Virus genome (UHGV): UHGV-0112814
Direction: 5' to 3' (one strand)
DNA from: a virus
Length of the DNA: 39,031 nucleotides
In this document: one piece after another, positions 86-27,563 of the stretch
Layout of the letters: the number at the start of each line of letters is the position of its first letter
How positions within the stretch are numbered: the stretch's first letter is position 1
Made by a program: the position numbers and the translations under genes
The notes under the pieces: model-generated
Databases searched by the model: none
What the model saw: the letters and a program-made list of their open reading frames with translations, nothing else
Told to the model about the DNA's origin: nothing

Positions 86-1467
86 ATGCTCACCGTTAAG
101 CAGATTGAAGCAGCAAAGCCGAAAGAAAAACCATACCGCCTTCTCGATGGTAATGGCCTGTACCTTTATGTCCCTGTATCAGGGAAAAAGGTATGGCAGC
201 TTCGCTACAAGATTGACGGTAAGGAGAAAATCCTGACCGTAGGAAAATATCCGCTAATGACTTTGCAGGAAGCAAGAGATAAAGCATGGACCGCGAGGAA
301 AGACATCTCGGTTGGCATCGATCCGGTAAAAGCGAAAAAGGCTTCGTCTAACAACAATTCCTTTAGTGCCATTTACAAGGAATGGTACGAGCACAAGAAG
401 CAAGTCTGGTCAGTAGGCTATGCAACTGAACTTGCCAAAATGTTTGATGACGACATTTTACCCATCATCGGCGGTCTTGAGATTCAGGATATTGAGCCGA
501 TGCAACTGCTGGAAGTAATCCGCAGATTTGAAGATCGCGGTGCAATGGAGCGAGCAAATAAAGCCCGCAGAAGATGCGGCGAGGTTTTCCGTTACGCTAT
601 TGTCACCGGCAGGGCTAAATATAACCCGGCACCTGACCTTGCAGACGCCATGAAAGGATACCGCAAGAAGAACTTCCCGTTTCTTCCTGCAGACCAGATC
701 CCGGCATTCAACAAAGCACTGGCAACATTTTCAGGAAGTATCGTATCGCTCATTGCGACCAAAGTTTTACGCTACACAGCCCTAAGAACGAAAGAGCTTC
801 GCTCCATGCAATGGAAGAACGTCGATTTTGAAAACAGGATTATCACCATCGACGCCAGTGTGATGAAGGGACGCAAAATTCATGTGGTTCCTATGTCAGA
901 CCGTTTCTTCCTGCAGACCAGATCCCGGCATTCAACAAAGCACTGGCAACATTTTCAGGAAGTATCGTATCGCTCATTGCGACCAAAGTTTTACGCTACA
1001 CAGCCCTAAGAACGAAAGAGCTTCGCTCCATGCAATGGAAGAACGTCGATTTTGAAAACAGGATTATCACCATCGACGCCAGTGTGATGAAGGGACGCAA
1101 AATTCATGTGGTTCCTATGTCAGACCAGGTGGTTGAACTTCTCACTACGCTAAGCTCAATCACCAAACCAGTATCAGAGTTTGTTTTTGCCGGGCGCAAC
1201 GATAAGAAGAAGCCAATCTGCGAGAACGCGGTACTGCTTGTGATCAAACAAATCGGCTATGAGGGTCTGGAAAGCGGTCACGGATTCAGGCATGAATTCA
1301 GCACGATTATGAACGAGCACGAATGGCCTGCTGATGCTATTGAAGTGCAACTGGCACATGCCAACGGCGGATCTGTGCGCGGGATTTACAACCATGCTCA
1401 GTATCTCGATAAGCGCAGAGAAATGATGCAGTGGTGGGCGGACTGGCTTGATGGGAAGGCGGGCTAA
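86..1467 (+). pseudogene. int: P4/IntS-type tyrosine integrase, reading frame broken by an internal 224-bp tandem duplication (N-terminal fragment ends at stop 1007-1009; C-terminal fragment resumes as ORF 1030..1467)
   Basis: ORF 50..1009 and ORF 1030..1467 share the peptide MQWKNVDFENRIITIDASVMKGRKIHVVPMSD; the second ORF continues into a tyrosine-recombinase C-terminus (HGFRHEF ... GIYNHAQY). ATG at 86 (MLTVKQIEAAKP) preferred over the track start at 50. 224 is not a multiple of 3, so the frame shifts. Confidence 0.85.
677..1124 (+). repeat. Perfect direct tandem duplication, 2 x 224 bp (copy 1 677..900, copy 2 901..1124), with 2-bp CC microhomology at the junction
   Basis: The string ccgtttcttcctgcagaccagatcccggc ... 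gttcctatgtcaga occurs twice back to back, identical by eye. Confidence 0.9.
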
Positions 1468-1754: not shown

Positions 1755-2804
1755 TTGAAACTTAATGATATTTTAAAGAAAGAAAATAACAATATAGATA
1801 TATTCAGAGTCATAGCTGCATGTCTGGTTATATGGGGACACGCTTATGTAATATCACCTGAAGTTGGGAAAAGTGATTTTATCACTTACCTTTTACCTCA
1901 CGACACTAGCGGTTCTATTGCAGTTAAAATATTCTTTTTCTTAAGTGGCTTAGTTGTTACTAACTCGATATTAACAACAAATAGTCCAATAAAATTTATT
2001 GCATCGAGATTTTTCAGGATATGGCCTGCTTTATTTTTCACATGTATTATTTGTGCATATATCATAGGGCCAATCGTTTCGACTCTTCCTTTGAAAGAGT
2101 ATTTCAATCCTGAAAACAGGATTTACCTTTATGTGTTTAACAATATATCGATGATAACGCAATACAATCTCCCCGGAGTTTTCTTGGATAATCCACACCC
2201 CATAAGTGTAAACGGTTCTTTATGGACAATTCCTTACGAGGTATATGCATATATAATTCTTTTATGTCTGTTTTGTATTGGGATTTACAAAAAACCGCTG
2301 CTAGTAGCATTTTTGGCTGTGGCAATAACATTTGAGTCTGTTTCTAAAATAAAAATTGTTTTTTTTAGCACACCATCTAACCCAGAAGTGCCAATGCTTG
2401 CGGCATGTTTTGCGTTCGGCTCAGTATTGGCCGCATATAAAAATGTAATTTCAATAACGTTAAAAACCTTTATCTCCCTATGGATATTGTATATTCTCCT
2501 TATTGATAACCCATATTCAATGTATCTATCCTATGCGGCAATCTTTATTGCCATACTATACTTATCAAAAACAAACACACTATTAAAGATTAAGCCAAAA
2601 GCTGACATATCCTATGGTGTGTATCTTTGGGGCTTTCCTGTTCAGCAAATCATAGCAATGTATTTTCTTAATAAAGGGGTGCTTTTTAACCAAATCTTAT
2701 CGATTTTTATATGCATAGTTCTTGGTTGGGCGTCATGGCACTTGGTAGAGAAAAGATTTATAAATCTCGGAAAGTTGGTGGGGAACCGCTTATCAGGTAA
2801 ATAA
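1755..2804 (+). CDS. oac: Integral membrane acyltransferase (acyltransferase-3 family), O-antigen acetylase-like serotype-conversion moron; TTG start
   Basis: 349 aa, highly hydrophobic multi-pass protein with an N-terminal IDIFRVIAACLVIWGHAY-type motif typical of acyltransferase-3 enzymes; very AT-rich by eye; sits between int and tailspike as oac does in Sf6-type phages. RBS aggtga upstream of TTG. Confidence 0.7.
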   Translation: MKLNDILKKENNNIDIFRVIAACLVIWGHAYVISPEVGKSDFITYLLPHDTSGSIAVKIFFFLSGLVVTNSILTTNSPIKFIASRFFRIWPALFFTCIICAYIIGPIVSTLPLKEYFNPENRIYLYVFNNISMITQYNLPGVFLDNPHPISVNGSLWTIPYEVYAYIILLCLFCIGIYKKPLLVAFLAVAITFESVSKIKIVFFSTPSNPEVPMLAACFAFGSVLAAYKNVISITLKTFISLWILYILLIDNPYSMYLSYAAIFIAILYLSKTNTLLKIKPKADISYGVYLWGFPVQQIIAMYFLNKGVLFNQILSIFICIVLGWASWHLVEKRFINLGKLVGNRLSGK

Positions 2805-2855: not shown

Positions 2856-5126
2856 TTACAAGCAAGCAGTTAACGGGAATGCAGTGTCTCCAATGTTAAG
2901 GACGACAGCAGCGATATCAATAGCAAAAACAGTACCGACAGGAAGGTTAATATTGACAATAACCTTTTCTTGTGTATCTAGAGAAGCACCTGGCGACATT
3001 TGGGCCACCCTGAAGTGAATAAACCTTCTGTAAAAATTCCCATCGTTTGGTATTGATACTACATTGTCACCCGAGCTTGCAAACCCTCCATTAACAGAAA
3101 CTACTGTTCCAGTGATGCCGCCAACTCCGCCAGCAGTAAACGTTTTAGCATAAAAAGAAAGGCACACATTACACCCCTGAATTTTGGCAGGAGAGATATC
3201 TAATTCAAATTGTAGCTGAAGATATGTTTGATCTGTAGCAGGTGATGTGCATAGTAACTGGAATGCATTTCTTTGCATATCTAATCGGTTTCGCTCATAT
3301 CCTCCTGCTGCAGTATTATTAGTAGTCCTTTTAGTTAGAGTAAAGCTACCTCCGGTTCCATCTGAAACGGCAGTCAACCCGCTTATTCCGAAATTACTAT
3401 TTATAGGAGCAGCGCCAACATATCCATTAATAATATCTGATGCATCCGAAATCTTCACTAGATTTTTTACTCTGCTTTTATATGAAGGCTTGTAAACAGA
3501 TGCGTACTCAGGCTCAATAAGATATCCAATATTATTTAAATTACCATCGTATCTAATAGTGCCAATATCCCAGTTTTTGTGACCAATAATTTCAGGAGAT
3601 TCAATTAACGGGTAGTGATAATGCACAAATGTTGCTTTATCAATAGACAAATCCTCTAATGCTAAATTATTTCCAAATATGAAATATCTACTTACGTGTT
3701 CAGTATTACCCATATTTGCATAACTACCATTTACTGTTAATCTTTTTACAAATGTAGATGCACCATTATCAACCATTCCGGCACCGCCATCGGCCTTACT
3801 GCCTGTAAAATATGGGTCATCATCATATGATAGCTGGATGCATTTAATTACCTCCCCTTCCTCTGGGCCAAATGGTTTCTCTGAGTAGAAATTTAGAAGT
3901 GTTACATCTGCACAACCAGCTGAAATGATAACATCAGTAAGCATGCCATTGTTTGCTCCTCCTTCAATAACCGTGCGCCAACCGCTAATCCAGTAAGCTA
4001 TCCCGCCACGCGACCAGCCAACACCTTCCACCTTATTGTTTGTTGCCGTCAACAATGTACTCCAAAGATCAACAACTTTACCAAGAACATGATCTTCGTA
4101 GTAACCAGGGCAGCGCACAAAGTTTCGTGTATTCACCCTATCAGCTATGAAATCGGTATGGGCCTCGAACAAGCAATCCCTTACCGATACCCTCCAGTTG
4201 TTAAATTCGGCATTAACAGCCCAGGAGCCATCTCCGCCAAACGCACGGAATTCGCAATTAGATACATCGCAATAAGTTACCCAATGAGCAAAATTTATTG
4301 CATATCCTGATGTTGCCCCCCCCTTAAAAACAGCACCTTCAATACTGTAGTGCTTATTAAACGGGGTCTTACCAGTAGCTCCGTTGTAGTCTCCGCTTAG
4401 ATCATATGGGCCCATGTTAAAGGCGTTTCCTGAGCCTAAGTAATGGAATACAGTTCCTTCGCAGATAATTCTTACCGGTCTGGTGAAATGCATGTCTTTA
4501 GAATATGAGATTGTACCTGGTGGGAATAGCACTCCAACAGGAATTCCATCAGTATTAGGTATCGCGTTCACATACTCCACGAAAGCGTTGATCGCATCAG
4601 TAGAGTCAGTACCATCCATCTTTACACCAAAGTCCTGTGGTGTGATGAAATCCTGATTTTTATCGTGTTGCGTCCTGTGTATTGCACCAATCGCAGGGAG
4701 GTGAACACCAATCAGCGCATCACCCTTTGTATCGTCATCGATATAACTGCCATCTTGAGCAAGCTGGTCTTTGAAGTCAGGACCAAACTGATCAGGGTCA
4801 TACTTCAGCACGTTAGGGAAATAGAACTGCTGAGCACCGTACGCATCATAAACAGCCATAGAATGGCCTTGCACAGTTACGAACTTGGCAATCTGTCCGT
4901 TATATACGGGGTAACCAGCAGCGTTAATGATGATTGGTTGCGATACAGGAACGTGAGAGCCGTCTTCGTTCTCTACATAAACCTGAATCTGGTTTTCAGG
5001 ATTTACCGGGTCAGTGTCAATTTTACCGATATAAATTTTGCCATTGGCTACGGCTTTAAAAGAACGAGCCATAGTGAAGAGTTGCGAAGGCATGCTGACC
5101 ACAACATTTGCGGTGATATCTGACAT
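2856..5126 (-). CDS. Tailspike protein with P22-type N-terminal head-binding domain and a divergent receptor-binding body
   Basis: N-terminus [59 protein letters not shown] closely matches the P22 gp9 N-terminus. Start moved to ATG at 5126 (the track start at 5174 adds 16 aa). Confidence 0.9.
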
Positions 5127-5151
5127 TTCATTGCTCCAGACGAATGATATG

Positions 5152-5174
5152 ATGCAATCATGATGTGATTGCAT
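5152..5174. promoter_or_regulatory. Candidate operator: inverted repeat atgcaatca-tgatg-tgattgcat between the tailspike start and mnt
   Basis: Perfect 9-bp half-sites with a 5-bp spacer in the 120-bp divergent intergenic region. Confidence 0.4.
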
Positions 5175-23283: not shown

Positions 23284-23570
23284 GGCTTAATCTTCCCCTC
23301 CTTCAGTAGTATCGCCTGCGTCCTGATCACGCCTTCGAGGTGGTAAAGTCTGGCGTCTTTGTTGTCGAGATTATGGGTGCGTCGGTCGATCTCCGCGTGG
23401 CAGTCACTACAAGCCCATGCGCCGATCAGGTCGTCAGGCTTCATTCCCGTTCCGCAAATTCCAGCCATCCGGTAATGTGCCAGAACTGTAGTTTCAGGAT
23501 TACCATTGCATATGCCGTAAATACGTACCTGGCATTCTCTGCCGCGCGCTTCTTTGCGTAGATTAGCCAT
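23280..23570 (-). CDS. YbcO-like zinc-binding putative nuclease (DUF1364-like)
   Basis: 96 aa, RGRECQVRIYGICNGNPETTVLAH ... CSDCH pattern resembles DLP12 YbcO. Confidence 0.6.
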   Translation of the reverse strand: MANLRKEARGRECQVRIYGICNGNPETTVLAHYRMAGICGTGMKPDDLIGAWACSDCHAEIDRRTHNLDNKDARLYHLEGVIRTQAILLKEGKIKP

Positions 23571-23775
23571 TTACCTTCCCTCGCAATTGAAGAATTGACT
23601 GAAGGTCTTTTTTAATAAATATGCGAGTGCGGATTGAGCAGTAGTTTTCCTTCATTCTGGCGTAGTAATAGTCCTTTCGTTGTTTAAGCTTGTTGGCATC
23701 CGCAGTCATCCAGTCTTTTACAGCAAACTTAATTAACCAGCGGTGGCAGAGATACCATTTCAGGTAATCACTCAT
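23563..23775 (-). CDS. Hypothetical nin-region protein
   Basis: 70-aa ORF with start/stop overlaps on both sides. Confidence 0.45.
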   Translation of the reverse strand: MSDYLKWYLCHRWLIKFAVKDWMTADANKLKQRKDYYYARMKENYCSIRTRIFIKKDLQSILQLRGKVNG

Positions 23776-23938
23776 CGTCTTCTTCCTCGTACATTGAGCT
23801 ATTCGGATCGCTCATCAGTTCTGCGCAGCAATCGGAGCACACGTGAACTTCCAGCACATGCAGCTTCTGACCGCAGTTAGCGCACGTTAAAGCTCGCTCG
23901 ACACTTCCTTGTTCGTAACTTCGATTTTGGTCAATCAC
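23768..23938 (-). CDS. ninF: NinF-like small Cys-rich protein (GTG start)
   Basis: Own translation gives ...[45 protein letters not shown], resembling lambda NinF; below the ORF-track size cutoff. Confidence 0.5.
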
Positions 23939-24117
23939 CTTGTTTTCCTCGCACGTTCTCTAAGCCACCGGATATCCCACAGGTGAGCCGTGTAGTTGAA
24001 GGTTTTTACGTCAGATTCTTTTGGGATTGGCTTGCGTTTATTTCTGGAGCGTTTCGTTGGAAGGTATTTGCAGTTTTCACAGATGATGTCGGTGATACTT
24101 CGTCGCTGTCGTCTCAT
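23935..24117 (-). CDS. ninE: NinE
   Basis: [52 protein letters not shown] matches lambda NinE. Confidence 0.8.
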
Positions 24118-24644
24118 GCCGCCCTCCTGACGCCCTGCCCGATCGCCATCAATGCCGCTTTGGATACGGTAGTAAACATCCGTCGAGGACTGATGAACGG
24201 TCGCCAAATCAGCAGCATGGAGCCTTTGCTGTTTCCCTTCTTCTCCAGCCCTGTCGATGGTTCGATAAAATTAATCCGTCCATCAGTGATAATGCGAACT
24301 TCGTCGACACTCTCCAGAGCCTTGCTGAACCATCCGACAGACATATCCTCTGGCACAAGCATCACTACCGTCTGTCGCTGTTGTATGCACTGCTCAGCTG
24401 CTTTTTCCACCCACGGCCTGATATTGCTGTACGGTGGGTTATTCCAGATTGCACCGTGACTTACCCACTCAGAATTGAGCGCGTCGTCGGCCTCAGTTAG
24501 CCAGTGAGCGCACAGAGCATTTTTGTCGCTCGCTGCCGAATCCAGCCAGAATCCAAACTCAATATCCAGTGCATCAAAAAGCCAGAGCGGCGTTTGCCAG
24601 CAGTCTCTAACTTCTTTTGGTGTTTCTGATTTATGCTTAATCAT
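24114..24644 (-). CDS. Phage-type DNA N6-adenine methyltransferase (Dam-like, orphan)
   Basis: 176 aa with NPPYS catalytic motif; ATGA-type overlaps with flanking genes. Confidence 0.75.
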
Positions 24645-25168
24645 ACAACCTTCGCATATTGTCCGTGATATTTGTTGATAGCCTCACTGGCAACCAAACA
24701 AGCAAGTTCAAGATCTTCATAGAGCCCAAAATACAACCGGCCAAAATCTGTGCGCACTTGAACGGCCCATTTATTTTTTTGCTTGTTCCATAAAACATTT
24801 TTTATTCCAGAACGGCTATTGCACTTAGTTTTCTGATTTCGGCTGTTTGCTATCCGGCCTGCCTCCCTAAGATTTTTTGGGGAATTGTCCAGCCTGTTTC
24901 CGTTAATATGGTCAATATTTTTCAATGGCATTCTTTTGTTGTGCAGCGCAAAAACAACTACGTGAACAAACATCTGAATGCCTGCAAAACACACCTGTCT
25001 ATACCCAGATCCATTTATCGATGTTTTAATTTCATCTCCTGCCCGGTGGCTGTGGTTGGGGTGTTTTAGCGAGTCCTTTTTGTATCTGACTGTATCTCCG
25101 TCTAAATACAGATAATCCTCAATAAGCCGATACCTATCTGACGCTGGCGTATTTGATTTGATAGTCAT
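24641..25168 (-). CDS. HNH endonuclease (homing-endonuclease-like)
   Basis: IDHINGNRLDNSPKNLR HNH motif; AT-rich relative to neighbours by eye; start at ATG 25168 overlapping the NinB stop. Confidence 0.7.
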   Translation of the reverse strand: MTIKSNTPASDRYRLIEDYLYLDGDTVRYKKDSLKHPNHSHRAGDEIKTSINGSGYRQVCFAGIQMFVHVVVFALHNKRMPLKNIDHINGNRLDNSPKNLREAGRIANSRNQKTKCNSRSGIKNVLWNKQKNKWAVQVRTDFGRLYFGLYEDLELACLVASEAINKYHGQYAKVV

Positions 25169-25605
25169 GCAGCCCGATCTCCCCATCGCGCTTTCCATTC
25201 GAGAGCCAGTCGCGCTTCGTCTGACCACTTAACGCCACGCTCTGTACCGAATGCTTGTATAAGCTCTAATAGCTCCGCAAATTCGCCTACACGCATCCTG
25301 CTGGTTGACTGGCCTATTACCACAAAGCCATTCCCGGCAAGGTTAGGAACAACGTCCTGCTGCTTTAATGCTGCGGTAAACACACACTTCCAGCTTTCTG
25401 CATCCAGCCAACGCCCATGCCATTCAACCTGACGAGAGACGTCACCAAGGCAAGCCCAAAGCTTCCGATTCTGGTCTAAGCTGCGGTTGCGCTCCTGAAT
25501 GATCACTACGATTGGCTTGGTTTGGTCTGGAAGGATTTGCTGTACTGCGTGAATAGCGCTTTGCTGATGTGCCGGAGATCGAATTTCAAAGGTTAGTTTT
25601 TTCAT
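25165..25605 (-). CDS. ninB: NinB recombination protein
   Basis: MKKLTFEIRSPAHQQSAIHAVQQILPD ... matches lambda NinB; start at M7 of the track ORF. Confidence 0.9.
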   Translation of the reverse strand: MKKLTFEIRSPAHQQSAIHAVQQILPDQTKPIVVIIQERNRSLDQNRKLWACLGDVSRQVEWHGRWLDAESWKCVFTAALKQQDVVPNLAGNGFVVIGQSTSRMRVGEFAELLELIQAFGTERGVKWSDEARLALEWKARWGDRAA

Positions 25606-25682
25606 GACTTCCCTCTCCCCCAAATAAAAAGGCCTGCGATTACCAGCAGGCCTGTTACAAGCTCAGTGATGTAGATGGTCAT

Positions 25683-27563
25683 TTAATACTCCGTCACGTT
25701 TTCCTGTCGCCACGCCTCGTCATATTCCGATTTCGGCATATTGGCGATGTAGCTATAAGGCGATCCTGATTCAAGTTGCAGGAACTGGTGCGATTGCTCG
25801 TCAAGGAACAACGGGACACCACCTTCCCAACCTTCGCCGTTACGTTGTTTTTCAAGCATCAAAACAGATGCCGGAGATGCCAGTAGCTGTTCGTCCTTCT
25901 CTGACATCTTTTCACCACTCTGAACTCTCTGTAACGCTCTCTCGCGAGCCTTGTTACGCCAGATGATAAAAAGGTTGTCTGTCAGGTCTGTTATCGCTCC
26001 AGAGCCTTTTACGTCCATTTTCCCGGTTGGTTTTTCTTCGCTATCTCCTTTTCTGGAGTGAGTAACGAGAATGACGTGGGAGTTTGTTTTGTTTTTGAAG
26101 TCACAAATCGAGTCAACAAATGCTTTCTGCCCGTTATAGTCATCGTCACCTATGCCGCATTTCATCAGGCTGTCGATGATGAATAACTGGATGCCGTATC
26201 GGCGGCGAGCGTAGTCGAATATTTCGATCAGCCTGTCGGCTTTCGCCGTTCCAGTCAGGCCAAACACCCAAAATCTTTCGTCATAAAATTTAAATGCAGA
26301 GTCAATTTCCAGCACTGGCGGCATCTTGCAGCACGTCGCCTGACGGGTAAGGCGCTTAAGGAGAATACCAGGCTTCAGCTCAAGTGACGCGATGCACGTC
26401 TTCACACCCTGACGCATTGCCTCAAGTGCCATATGCCCGACAACCTCCGTTTTTCCGTGACCGTTCACACCATTGACCAGCGTCAACTCGGCCTCACGGA
26501 ACTGGAATTTATCTGCCAGAGATTCCCACGGTGGATTAAACAGATACTGCTGCTTGCCGTAGAAAGCGTTGATAGTGTCCTGGTAAAACTCTCGCGCGCT
26601 GTAGAGTTCTTCAGGATCGAAGTAGGATGCCGTGCCGATGTACTGCCAGATTTCATCCTCGGTAACACCGTTCATCAGGCATTCGTTGATGTCTTTGTAC
26701 GGCAGAGTAACAAGACGGCAACGATGTTCACCGAGTCGGCTTGCGATTTCCCTTGCGGCTTCACGACCAACATCATCAACGTCCATCGAGATGAATATTT
26801 CCTCAAACCTGTCGAGGTTGTGATACTCAAACTCAATCCACTGTTGCTTAGCGCCTTTCCCGCCACCAAACGGCACGGATAACGCCGAGATGCCGTATTG
26901 CGCATAGCTCATACAATCAATTTCGCCTTCGCAAAGTACAACCGCCCTCACGCCAGCGTCCAGAGCCTGCCATCCAAACAGACAAGGTTCGCAATCACCT
27001 TCTGCCATAATGACTTTCTTCCCGTCCGGTCGCTCAGTGCTGATTCGCTTGACCTGCAACAACTCACCATCGCGTTTGTACGGAAGCACCAGTGCATCAA
27101 GTTCTCGTTCTCCATTCCACACCTTGCCGCTGACAACCTCGTAGCGCTTTACGACTTCTGGCGATATGCCACGCGATTGCAGGTACTCAAGATGGGATTC
27201 TGTTCTGGTAACGTAGCGGGCGATTTTCTTGCGGTCAGGTCTGGAGAATTTCTTCTCACGTTTGGCATCGAAATGGTGATCGTCATCCTTGATTCCGAGA
27301 AAGGCTTTCGCTTCCTGCATAGCCTGATGCAGGTTAATTCCACGACATGCCATCCACAAATCAAGCATGTCACCGCCGTCTCCCTCAGCGAAATCAGCCC
27401 ATTTTTTCTTGCCGCTAAGGTTGACCTTAAGGCTGTTTCCCTTGTCACCGTTGACGTTACCGGCAACCCACTCATGCCCCTCTTTCTTGCCGTTTGGCAA
27501 CAGGTGCGGAGCCACCCTGTCAACCTGCGCCCAAAGCAGGTCACTGAGTTCACTTGGAGTCAT
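25683..27563 (-). CDS. Bifunctional primase (TOPRIM)/DnaB-like helicase replication protein
   Basis: 626 aa; TOPRIM-like VVLCEGEIDCMSYAQYG segment and Walker A-like VNGVNGHGKTEV segment. Confidence 0.8.
   Translation of the reverse strand: MTPSELSDLLWAQVDRVAPHLLPNGKKEGHEWVAGNVNGDKGNSLKVNLSGKKKWADFAEGDGGDMLDLWMACRGINLHQAMQEAKAFLGIKDDDHHFDAKREKKFSRPDRKKIARYVTRTESHLEYLQSRGISPEVVKRYEVVSGKVWNGERELDALVLPYKRDGELLQVKRISTERPDGKKVIMAEGDCEPCLFGWQALDAGVRAVVLCEGEIDCMSYAQYGISALSVPFGGGKGAKQQWIEFEYHNLDRFEEIFISMDVDDVGREAAREIASRLGEHRCRLVTLPYKDINECLMNGVTEDEIWQYIGTASYFDPEELYSAREFYQDTINAFYGKQQYLFNPPWESLADKFQFREAELTLVNGVNGHGKTEVVGHMALEAMRQGVKTCIASLELKPGILLKRLTRQATCCKMPPVLEIDSAFKFYDERFWVFGLTGTAKADRLIEIFDYARRRYGIQLFIIDSLMKCGIGDDDYNGQKAFVDSICDFKNKTNSHVILVTHSRKGDSEEKPTGKMDVKGSGAITDLTDNLFIIWRNKARERALQRVQSGEKMSEKDEQLLASPASVLMLEKQRNGEGWEGGVPLFLDEQSHQFLQLESGSPYSYIANMPKSEYDEAWRQENVTEY

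Follow-up and report, generated by a model that had tools for sequence, protein, structure and literature searches.

A candidate free-standing HNH homing endonuclease cassette at the 5′ end of prophage dam genes

We describe an HNH endonuclease gene that lies within the first codons of dam, a gene for an N6-adenine methylase, in the UHGV virus genome UHGV-0112814. The whole stretch of DNA that was analysed (39,031 nucleotides (nt), hereafter the window) is a P22-like prophage, as marked by a tailspike head-binding domain, a P22-type portal and coat, and an injectosome protein. It also contains genes for a Q antiterminator, an S24 repressor, and RecT. The HNH gene is placed in the early-right "nin" operon, which is on the minus strand throughout.

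The HNH gene inside the first codons of dam

Alignment with phages mEp043, 933W, and Dewey indicates that the HNH gene sits inside the first codons of dam and not between ninB and dam. In relatives that lack the HNH gene (more than 400 phages and approximately 1,800 Escherichia coli genomes), dam starts at the same ninB-overlapping ATGA, and the HNH open reading frame (ORF) in the window opens with exactly the 26 nt (ATGACTATCAAATCAAATACGCCAGC, encoding MTIKSNTPA) that begin this HNH-less dam. The overlap between ninB and HNH is the same overlap that joins ninB to dam in HNH-less phages. The insert is in frame within dam codons 9-13 and contains the body of the HNH gene, a stop/start ATGA, and 13 replacement dam codons (the patch), for a net gain of 527 nt. 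Similarity to HNH-less dam resumes only at GACTGCTGG, which encodes the Asp-Cys-Trp of the DCWQTP motif. The patch is homologous to the resident MTIKSNTPAHDK but clearly different from it.

The features of the locus, with positions in the window, are as follows.

27563-25683, minus strand: Toprim primase-helicase gene, upstream of ninB
25605-25165, minus strand: ninB, Orf-family recombination mediator (Pfam NinB, 2.4e-53)
25168-24641, minus strand: HNH endonuclease ORF, 175 amino acids (Pfam HNH_3, 5.2e-10)
25143-25168, minus strand: captured dam 5′ end (start codon and 26 nt), common to all loci with HNH
24606-25142, minus strand: inserted cassette, 537 nt replacing 10 nt (ACACGACAAG); homology breaks at 25143 and 24605
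24836-24913, minus strand: catalytic HNH motif, residues 86-111, DHINGNRLDNSPKNLREAGRIANSRN; columns invariant or nearly so in 19 relatives
24656-24808, minus strand: predicted C-terminal AP2-like DNA-binding domain, residues ~121-171; three strands and a helix in the model
24649-24653, minus strand: putative Shine-Dalgarno-like GAAGG within the final codons of HNH, 4 nt upstream of the dam ATG
24641-24644, minus strand (plus-strand tcat): cassette-borne ATGA, in which the HNH TGA overlaps the new dam ATG
24606-24644, minus strand: the patch, 13 codons, with 14 substitutions and one extra codon relative to the resident sequence
24644-24114, minus strand: dam (Pfam PF05869 Dam, 8.2e-66)
24114-24605, minus strand: resident dam core, from DCWQTP onward and including NPPY; indistinguishable from dam of HNH-less phages
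24117-23935, minus strand: ninE, directly after dam

Because the cassette is in frame after nt 26 of dam, the nuclease ORF uses dam's own start codon. The HNH ORF has no other in-frame ATG until Met66. The 13 substitute codons rejoin the resident gene exactly at DCWQTP, so a full-length Dam ORF is kept with a substituted N-terminus. The Shine-Dalgarno-like motif upstream of the new dam ATG is GAGGG in the other haplotype of the cassette and in contig L002, which carries a second cassette lineage (below). A longer HNH ORF starting at 25186 (MGRSGC...) was considered and rejected; this start is found only with lambda-type ninB, whereas every context has the (A/G)TGA start.

The position of the insert within a coding sequence, in frame at its 5′ side, is also what an intein- or intron-borne endonuclease would show, that is, a self-splicing element in dam. 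Against this, the ORF has its own stop codon and dam has a new start ATG, no Rfam intron family is found in 23800-25800 even at E<=1, and Pfam gives HNH_3 only, with no Hint or intein domains. We find a self-splicing element barely credible here.

The operon reads, on the minus strand, Toprim primase-helicase, ninB, the HNH_3 gene, the PF05869 Dam gene, ninE, ninF, a 70-codon ORF, ybcO, and rusA. At the ninB/HNH junction the plus-strand tcat at 25165-25168 is a minus-strand ATGA, in which the ninB TGA (25167-25165) overlaps the HNH ATG. A preliminary description of this DNA, made from the sequence alone, had noted such ATGA overlaps on both sides of an AT-rich HNH gene, and both features are present. 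The G+C content is 0.404 in the 537-nt insert, 0.512 in ninB, 0.530 in the dam core, and 0.474 in the whole window; the insert ranks in the lowest 7.4% of 537-nt windows and is moderately AT-rich, not extreme. The same description placed the gene between ninB and dam, which is wrong in detail. It also read the precise overlaps as selection to keep coupling. There are further 4-nt overlaps in the operon (dam/ninE, ninE/ninF, and ybcO/rusA) and 8-nt overlaps at ninF/orf70 and orf70/ybcO. Since overlapping junctions are the norm across the nin operon, the ATGA overlaps are not special by themselves. The suggestion of selection is half right: the resident ninB-dam junction is the source of the upstream ATGA, and the downstream ATGA is borne by the cassette and is conserved in the L002 lineage, whose HNH protein is 75% identical.

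The PF05869 match of the Dam protein covers residues 5-170 and profile positions 1-167 of 169, and the DCWxTP and NPPY motifs are present. Over the whole protein, the window Dam is 95% identical to Dam of 933W, Dewey, and mEp043, and most of the differences fall in the first 13 codons. The start of dam is inconsistently annotated. In the patch-bearing loci L005, L006, L008, and L197-L204, RefSeq places it 3 nt downstream of the ATG in ATGA, on ATT, and the annotated coding sequence begins on the final base of the upstream stop codon. The depositors of mEp043 placed the dam start 18 nt upstream, within ninB.

Distribution and separate history of the cassette

The HNH gene is rare among loci that could contain it. 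A megablast search with positions 23900-25700 matched 426 phage records, none of which covers HNH (0/426). The best HNH-less phage matches (including mEp043, SfI, HK140, 434, and Sf101) align over both flanks at 96-98% identity with a 527-nt gap. A sensitive blastn search of 50,697 phage records with HNH alone gave no match. Of 5,426 complete E. coli genomes, 1,874 contain the flanks (2,551 places) and 34 the HNH gene (43 places); dam is without HNH in approximately 98% of loci. A homing-endonuclease insertion was one of the readings in the preliminary description, and the comparison of ninB-dam junctions with HNH-less relatives supports it well, as the HNH gene is sporadic and not conserved across the phage family.

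The site is constant. The junctions fall after dam nt 26 and before the DCW codons in every E. coli-type copy, and the 3′ junction of the L002 lineage is the same. HNH-less E. coli loci match queries from HNH-containing loci exactly to ORF nt 26 and no further, both with 933W-type ninB (more than 1,400 genomes) and with Dewey-type ninB (51 genomes). The same HNH gene (95-100% nt identity) is joined in prophages from E. coli and IMG/VR to at least four unrelated upstream contexts. Three are ninB of the lambda/mEp043, 933W, and Dewey types (with a GTG start in the Dewey type), and there is one other. The gene is also combined with several replication and downstream modules. HNH copies that are 100% identical in nucleotides adjoin unrelated ninB alleles, with only 26 nt in common on the ninB side. 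There are two HNH haplotypes, with C-termini ...AKVV and ...ARVE, each seen with several ninB types. The exact HNH protein of the window is found in 485 blocks of the assembly collection, with at least six sets of neighbouring genes among the ten places listed.

Seven E. coli genomes have two HNH places (e.g., Z1323CEC0001/0009/0016, GPEC79-13-647, GPEC403-625, 23CRST013, and Br_190_kylling), though HNH is present in only approximately 2% of dam loci. Conversion between co-resident prophages could produce this arrangement. For the second copies in these seven genomes, two context-specific queries gave only copies that were already known.

We also found a second lineage of the cassette. An HNH protein with 75% identity to that of the window (P0003) is encoded on contig L002 and four IMG/VR contigs (L210-L213). 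The order in this lineage is a DUF1367 gene, HNH, ATGA, and dam, and dam starts with MIKHKSQTPIESR followed by DCW. The Dam protein is only 50% identical to the window Dam and belongs to a different phage group. The HNH-less counterpart of the L002 context is Erwinia phage vB_EhrS_49 (Eho49), in which a DUF1367-like gene is followed by a dam gene that starts with MTDRSNTAPEHKDAWRTP. L002-type HNH proteins begin with MTDKS or MTDIS, which resembles the start of Eho49 Dam (MTDRS...); in this lineage too the nuclease ORF begins with the first codons of the resident dam. A C5 cytosine methylase gene (PF00145, 368 amino acids) is located between ninE and ninF at 3447-4553 of L002, and this nin region thus contains two methylase genes.

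Between the window and L002, nt identity is 74% for HNH and 77% for the patch but only 56% for the dam core. Among L002-lineage members there is a 97-100% identical block that extends from about -344 (upstream of HNH) to about +615 (approximately 65 nt into the dam core); beyond it, identity of the remaining dam falls to 62-85%. Judged from the sequences, an element that is copied together with short flanks into different alleles would be expected to leave such a pattern. When 2.9 million IMG/VR contigs were searched for the patch with a degenerate query, 23 stretches were found, all from the two cassette lineages or their deletion derivatives. None of these contigs showed the MIKHKS-type dam 5′ end as a native allele. 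The patch occurs only with the cassette or with deletion derivatives of it.

The HNH protein, its decay and its loss

The HNH protein matches PHROG 99 ("HNH endonuclease") at 2.8e-42. With a profile of its 19 relatives, only I-HmuI (PDB 1U3E, E 2.5e-8), a homing endonuclease, is matched by sequence among solved structures, and in the hidden Markov model alignment D86, H87, N99, and N108 align with the catalytic D-H...N-L-R...N residues of I-HmuI. The AlphaFold (AF2) model has a predicted local distance difference test score of 85.6. Its C-terminal domain superposes on plant TEM1 AP2 domains in Foldseek (root-mean-square deviation 1.5-1.7 Å, 45-48 columns, probability 0.97-1.00). Based on the profile match and the model, the enzyme is predicted to be I-HmuI-like, with an HNH_3 catalytic core and an AP2-like DNA-binding domain. 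I-HmuI is encoded in a group I intron of a DNA polymerase gene and nicks one strand. The enzyme from Bacillus phage SPO1 and the HNH protein share the D-H...N...N catalytic arrangement and probably a similar N-terminal beta-rich DNA-binding part; the dam cassette differs in that it has no intron and in its C-terminal domain, which is predicted to be AP2-like.

The ratio of nonsynonymous to synonymous substitution rates (dN/dS) between the window HNH gene and its L002 homologue is 0.11 at dS 1.56, which indicates that the protein has been kept functional by purifying selection. Relatives at 40-50% identity are found in unrelated phage loci, with a thioredoxin gene as neighbour or in tail-fibre modules, again with overlaps of 1-4 nt, and among the HNH relatives the tie to dam is limited to this sub-lineage. 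A contig scan with a generic peptide pattern from the HNH alignment returned only distant relatives in unrelated bacteria (27-43% identity over most of the query).

Several copies of the HNH gene are damaged. P0002, P0004-P0006, L021, and L022 are frameshifted or truncated. IS100 (IS21 family) is inserted in the 5′ part of HNH in L008 (E. coli 503440, 1497-2830) and L023, where the fragments are annotated as hypothetical. The patch is present in 42 E. coli genomes, 34 with and 8 without HNH. The HNH-less patch loci (the 8 from E. coli and 4 from IMG/VR) fall into four classes.

Class 1: the 3′ end of ninB is fused to the last 11-13 nt of HNH
Class 2: clean ATGA|TTAAGC junction, patch only
Class 3: the last 27 nt of HNH are kept
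Class 4: in-frame deletion via CTATCAA microhomology; a 14-codon mini-ORF (MTINKYHGQYVRVE) is still coupled to dam

The remnants of HNH in classes 1, 3, and 4 identify these loci as losses, not ancestors, and at least three deletion classes are represented. HNH has been deleted repeatedly with dam kept, so the nuclease gene is dispensable and the patched dam persists alone. The reverse is seen in L007, a defective prophage of E. coli E89 (NZ_CP121157.1, 3290225-3290931), in which HNH is intact and dam is truncated and fused to a DUF1073 fragment.

These losses bear on a second reading in the preliminary description, a functional nuclease-methylase pair with a restriction-like or anti-restriction role. 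In such a module, which might also serve superinfection exclusion, HNH would attack DNA without Dam methylation and Dam would protect the carrier. HNH nucleases occur in restriction-modification systems, and in both lineages HNH is always directly upstream of a Dam gene and coupled to it by ATGA. As in Type II systems with an HNH nuclease, the nuclease and N6-adenine methylase genes are adjacent and co-oriented. However, the methylase here is mostly alone, its nuclease partner is repeatedly deleted and in L007 is intact beside a truncated dam, and the insertion site fully accounts for the linkage. Unlike the nuclease of a Type II system, the HNH protein is of a homing type that groups with I-HmuI-like enzymes, is dispensable and decaying, and has relatives that adjoin thioredoxin or tail-fibre genes and not methylases. 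There is no conserved GATC at the junction. This part of the preliminary description was not borne out, and we consider such a pair very unlikely. A Dam-site-dependent nuclease was also considered as a candidate and rejected; the GATC at 25179-25176, 8 nt upstream of the start, is present only with lambda-type ninB.

Related prophages contain other, different HNH_3 genes at other nin sites, located after ninF, between ybcO and rusA, and between dnaB and ninB. These extra genes are in L243 (4394-4903), L247 (4394-4960), L248 (4886-5410), L249 (1550-2161), and L004 (1567-1655; phage Dewey CDS0060). The one between dnaB and ninB has an AP2 match, and the window contains none of them. The nin region appears to be a general hot spot of free-standing HNH genes.

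Elsewhere in the window, the 70-codon ORF between ninF and ybcO (23563-23775, minus strand) has only a sub-threshold GNAT_C match and is conserved in mEp043, where it is annotated as a hypothetical protein. The integrase is split into adjacent ORFs (50-1009 and 1030-1467, plus strand), both of which match Pfam Phage_integrase (profile positions 2-75 and 44-170). It is probably disrupted, and the prophage may have lost excision. An Acyl_transf_3 gene (1755-2804, plus strand) adjoins the tailspike gene (2856-5174, minus strand) near the integrase end. P22-like and Sf6-like phages carry O-antigen-modifying (serotype-converting) genes at this tailspike-adjacent position near the integrase.

Homing, related elements and significance

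We predict that the insert is a free-standing HNH homing endonuclease cassette at the 5′ end of phage PF05869 dam genes. Five lines of sequence evidence make homing the probable explanation: the sporadic presence of the gene, its nucleotide-constant site, the I-HmuI-like protein, a history unlike that of the dam core, and the decayed and deleted copies.

In the proposed cycle, the nin operon would be expressed in lytic growth or upon prophage induction. If an HNH-less relative were in the same cell, the enzyme would nick or cut its intact dam 5′ region, and the break would be repaired from the HNH-containing copy by the phage proteins RecT, NinB, and RusA (all encoded in the window), which would copy the cassette with short flanks. 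Where the ninB alleles differ, only 26 nt of homology would be available on that side. The carrier would be immune, with its site split by 537 nt and the adjoining 36 nt rewritten. The cassette may later decay or be deleted between short repeats that it created, and HNH-less alleles that keep the patch are probably resistant.

Several observations weigh against homing. The top Foldseek match of the AF2 model is I-HmuI, but it is weak (E 1.9e-3, template modelling score 0.38), and Pfam AP2 matches 10 of the 19 relatives but not the window protein. Among 69 variable columns of the E. coli dam core, none has a single-nucleotide polymorphism diagnostic of HNH-containing loci, so no co-conversion tract is visible. 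The E89 chromosome, which carries the intact HNH of L007, also has a naive HNH-less dam with Dewey-type ninB (1531726-1532002) that is unconverted; this would be expected if the operon is silent in lysogens, yet it gives no support. The nin regions of lambdoid phages are highly mosaic, and ordinary recombination could move the cassette without a nuclease.

Several of these observations fit an immobile relic or passive mosaic module, which would have entered dam once or twice and now be moved by general recombination, with the nuclease inactive or otherwise used. In addition to the mosaicism and the unconverted E89 locus, ninB alleles are shuffled beside HNH-less dam too, and polymorphisms common to HNH-containing and HNH-less dam cores indicate frequent recombination. 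Three results argue the other way. Purifying selection on a protein whose repeated loss is harmless to dam is what a selfish nuclease would be expected to show; the cassette has crossed between dam genes whose 56% nt identity is too low for ordinary homologous exchange; and identical copies stand beside unrelated ninB alleles that have just 26 nt in common on that side. We consider a passive module unlikely, and homing by the cassette remains our preferred explanation.

The cassette may further represent an intron- and intein-free way to live in a coding sequence, by capture of the start codon and first codons, which would guarantee its expression, a portable restart site, and a substitute N-terminus that rebuilds the target gene, with the rewritten segment making the carrier, and later the HNH-less alleles with the patch, immune to cutting. 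We hold the case for this fuller interpretation to be evenly balanced.

Some features of the cassette are shared with known elements. In T4-type phages, the free-standing HNH gene mobE is located between nrdA and nrdB, and its start overlaps the upstream stop (UAAUGA) (PMC2988022). In phage Aeh1, mobE splits nrdA into two working pieces ("genes in pieces") (PMC2988022). Like mobE, the dam cassette has no intron or intein, has a start that overlaps an upstream stop, and lies in or beside a conserved phage gene that probably keeps its function. The Aeh1 host protein is made of two reassembling polypeptides, whereas the dam cassette is fused to the first 9 codons of dam and supplies a substitute N-terminus for a single near-full-length Dam. 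The hosts also differ, being T4-like phages for mobE and temperate lambdoid/P22-like prophages for the dam cassette.

An HNH gene is also hidden in a DNA methylase gene of actinophages, in the ShiLan-domain element (PMC11855218). Both are sporadic HNH homing-type genes in the coding sequence of a phage DNA methylase, with no detectable splicing element. The ShiLan element is mid-gene and is read through in the methylase frame, with HNH in another frame from a GTG start. In the dam cassette, HNH keeps to the frame of dam, lies at its very 5′ end, and terminates, with dam re-initiating; the methylase and HNH families and the hosts are different. In gene 31 of Salmonella phage epsilon34, an HNH homing endonuclease continues in frame from the N-terminus of a resident gene (PMC2629481). 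The start codon is captured in the same way, but this gene is in the early-left operon and not in dam, and a replacement 5′ end is not described there. In a literature search, we found no description of a dam-targeting cassette or of the replacement 5′ end that it carries.

Much is known about free-standing homing endonucleases from T4-like lytic phages, but those of temperate lambdoid/P22-like prophages have received far less study. The dam cassette is not a new type of system, and it reveals no new defence or restriction system. It provides a nucleotide-resolved case in which a selfish nuclease in a host gene, by capturing the start codon and bringing along a substitute 5′ end, appears to offset the damage that it does, and all stages of invasion, decay, and loss are visible in public E. 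coli genomes. The insertion explains the inconsistent annotation of dam start sites at these loci. The mosaicism of lambdoid/P22-like prophage genes is usually ascribed to ordinary recombination. The target gene is present in about a third of E. coli genomes. With E. coli prophages and phages such as mEp043, HK140, and 434 as possible naive recipients, the cassette offers an easy experimental system that could test the share of homing in the mosaicism of the nin region. If the fuller interpretation given above is true, patch-bearing HNH-less dam genes would be resistance alleles made by the element itself, and the homing cycle would still be running at the 5′ end of dam in enterobacterial prophages, where ordinary genome data could be used to track it.

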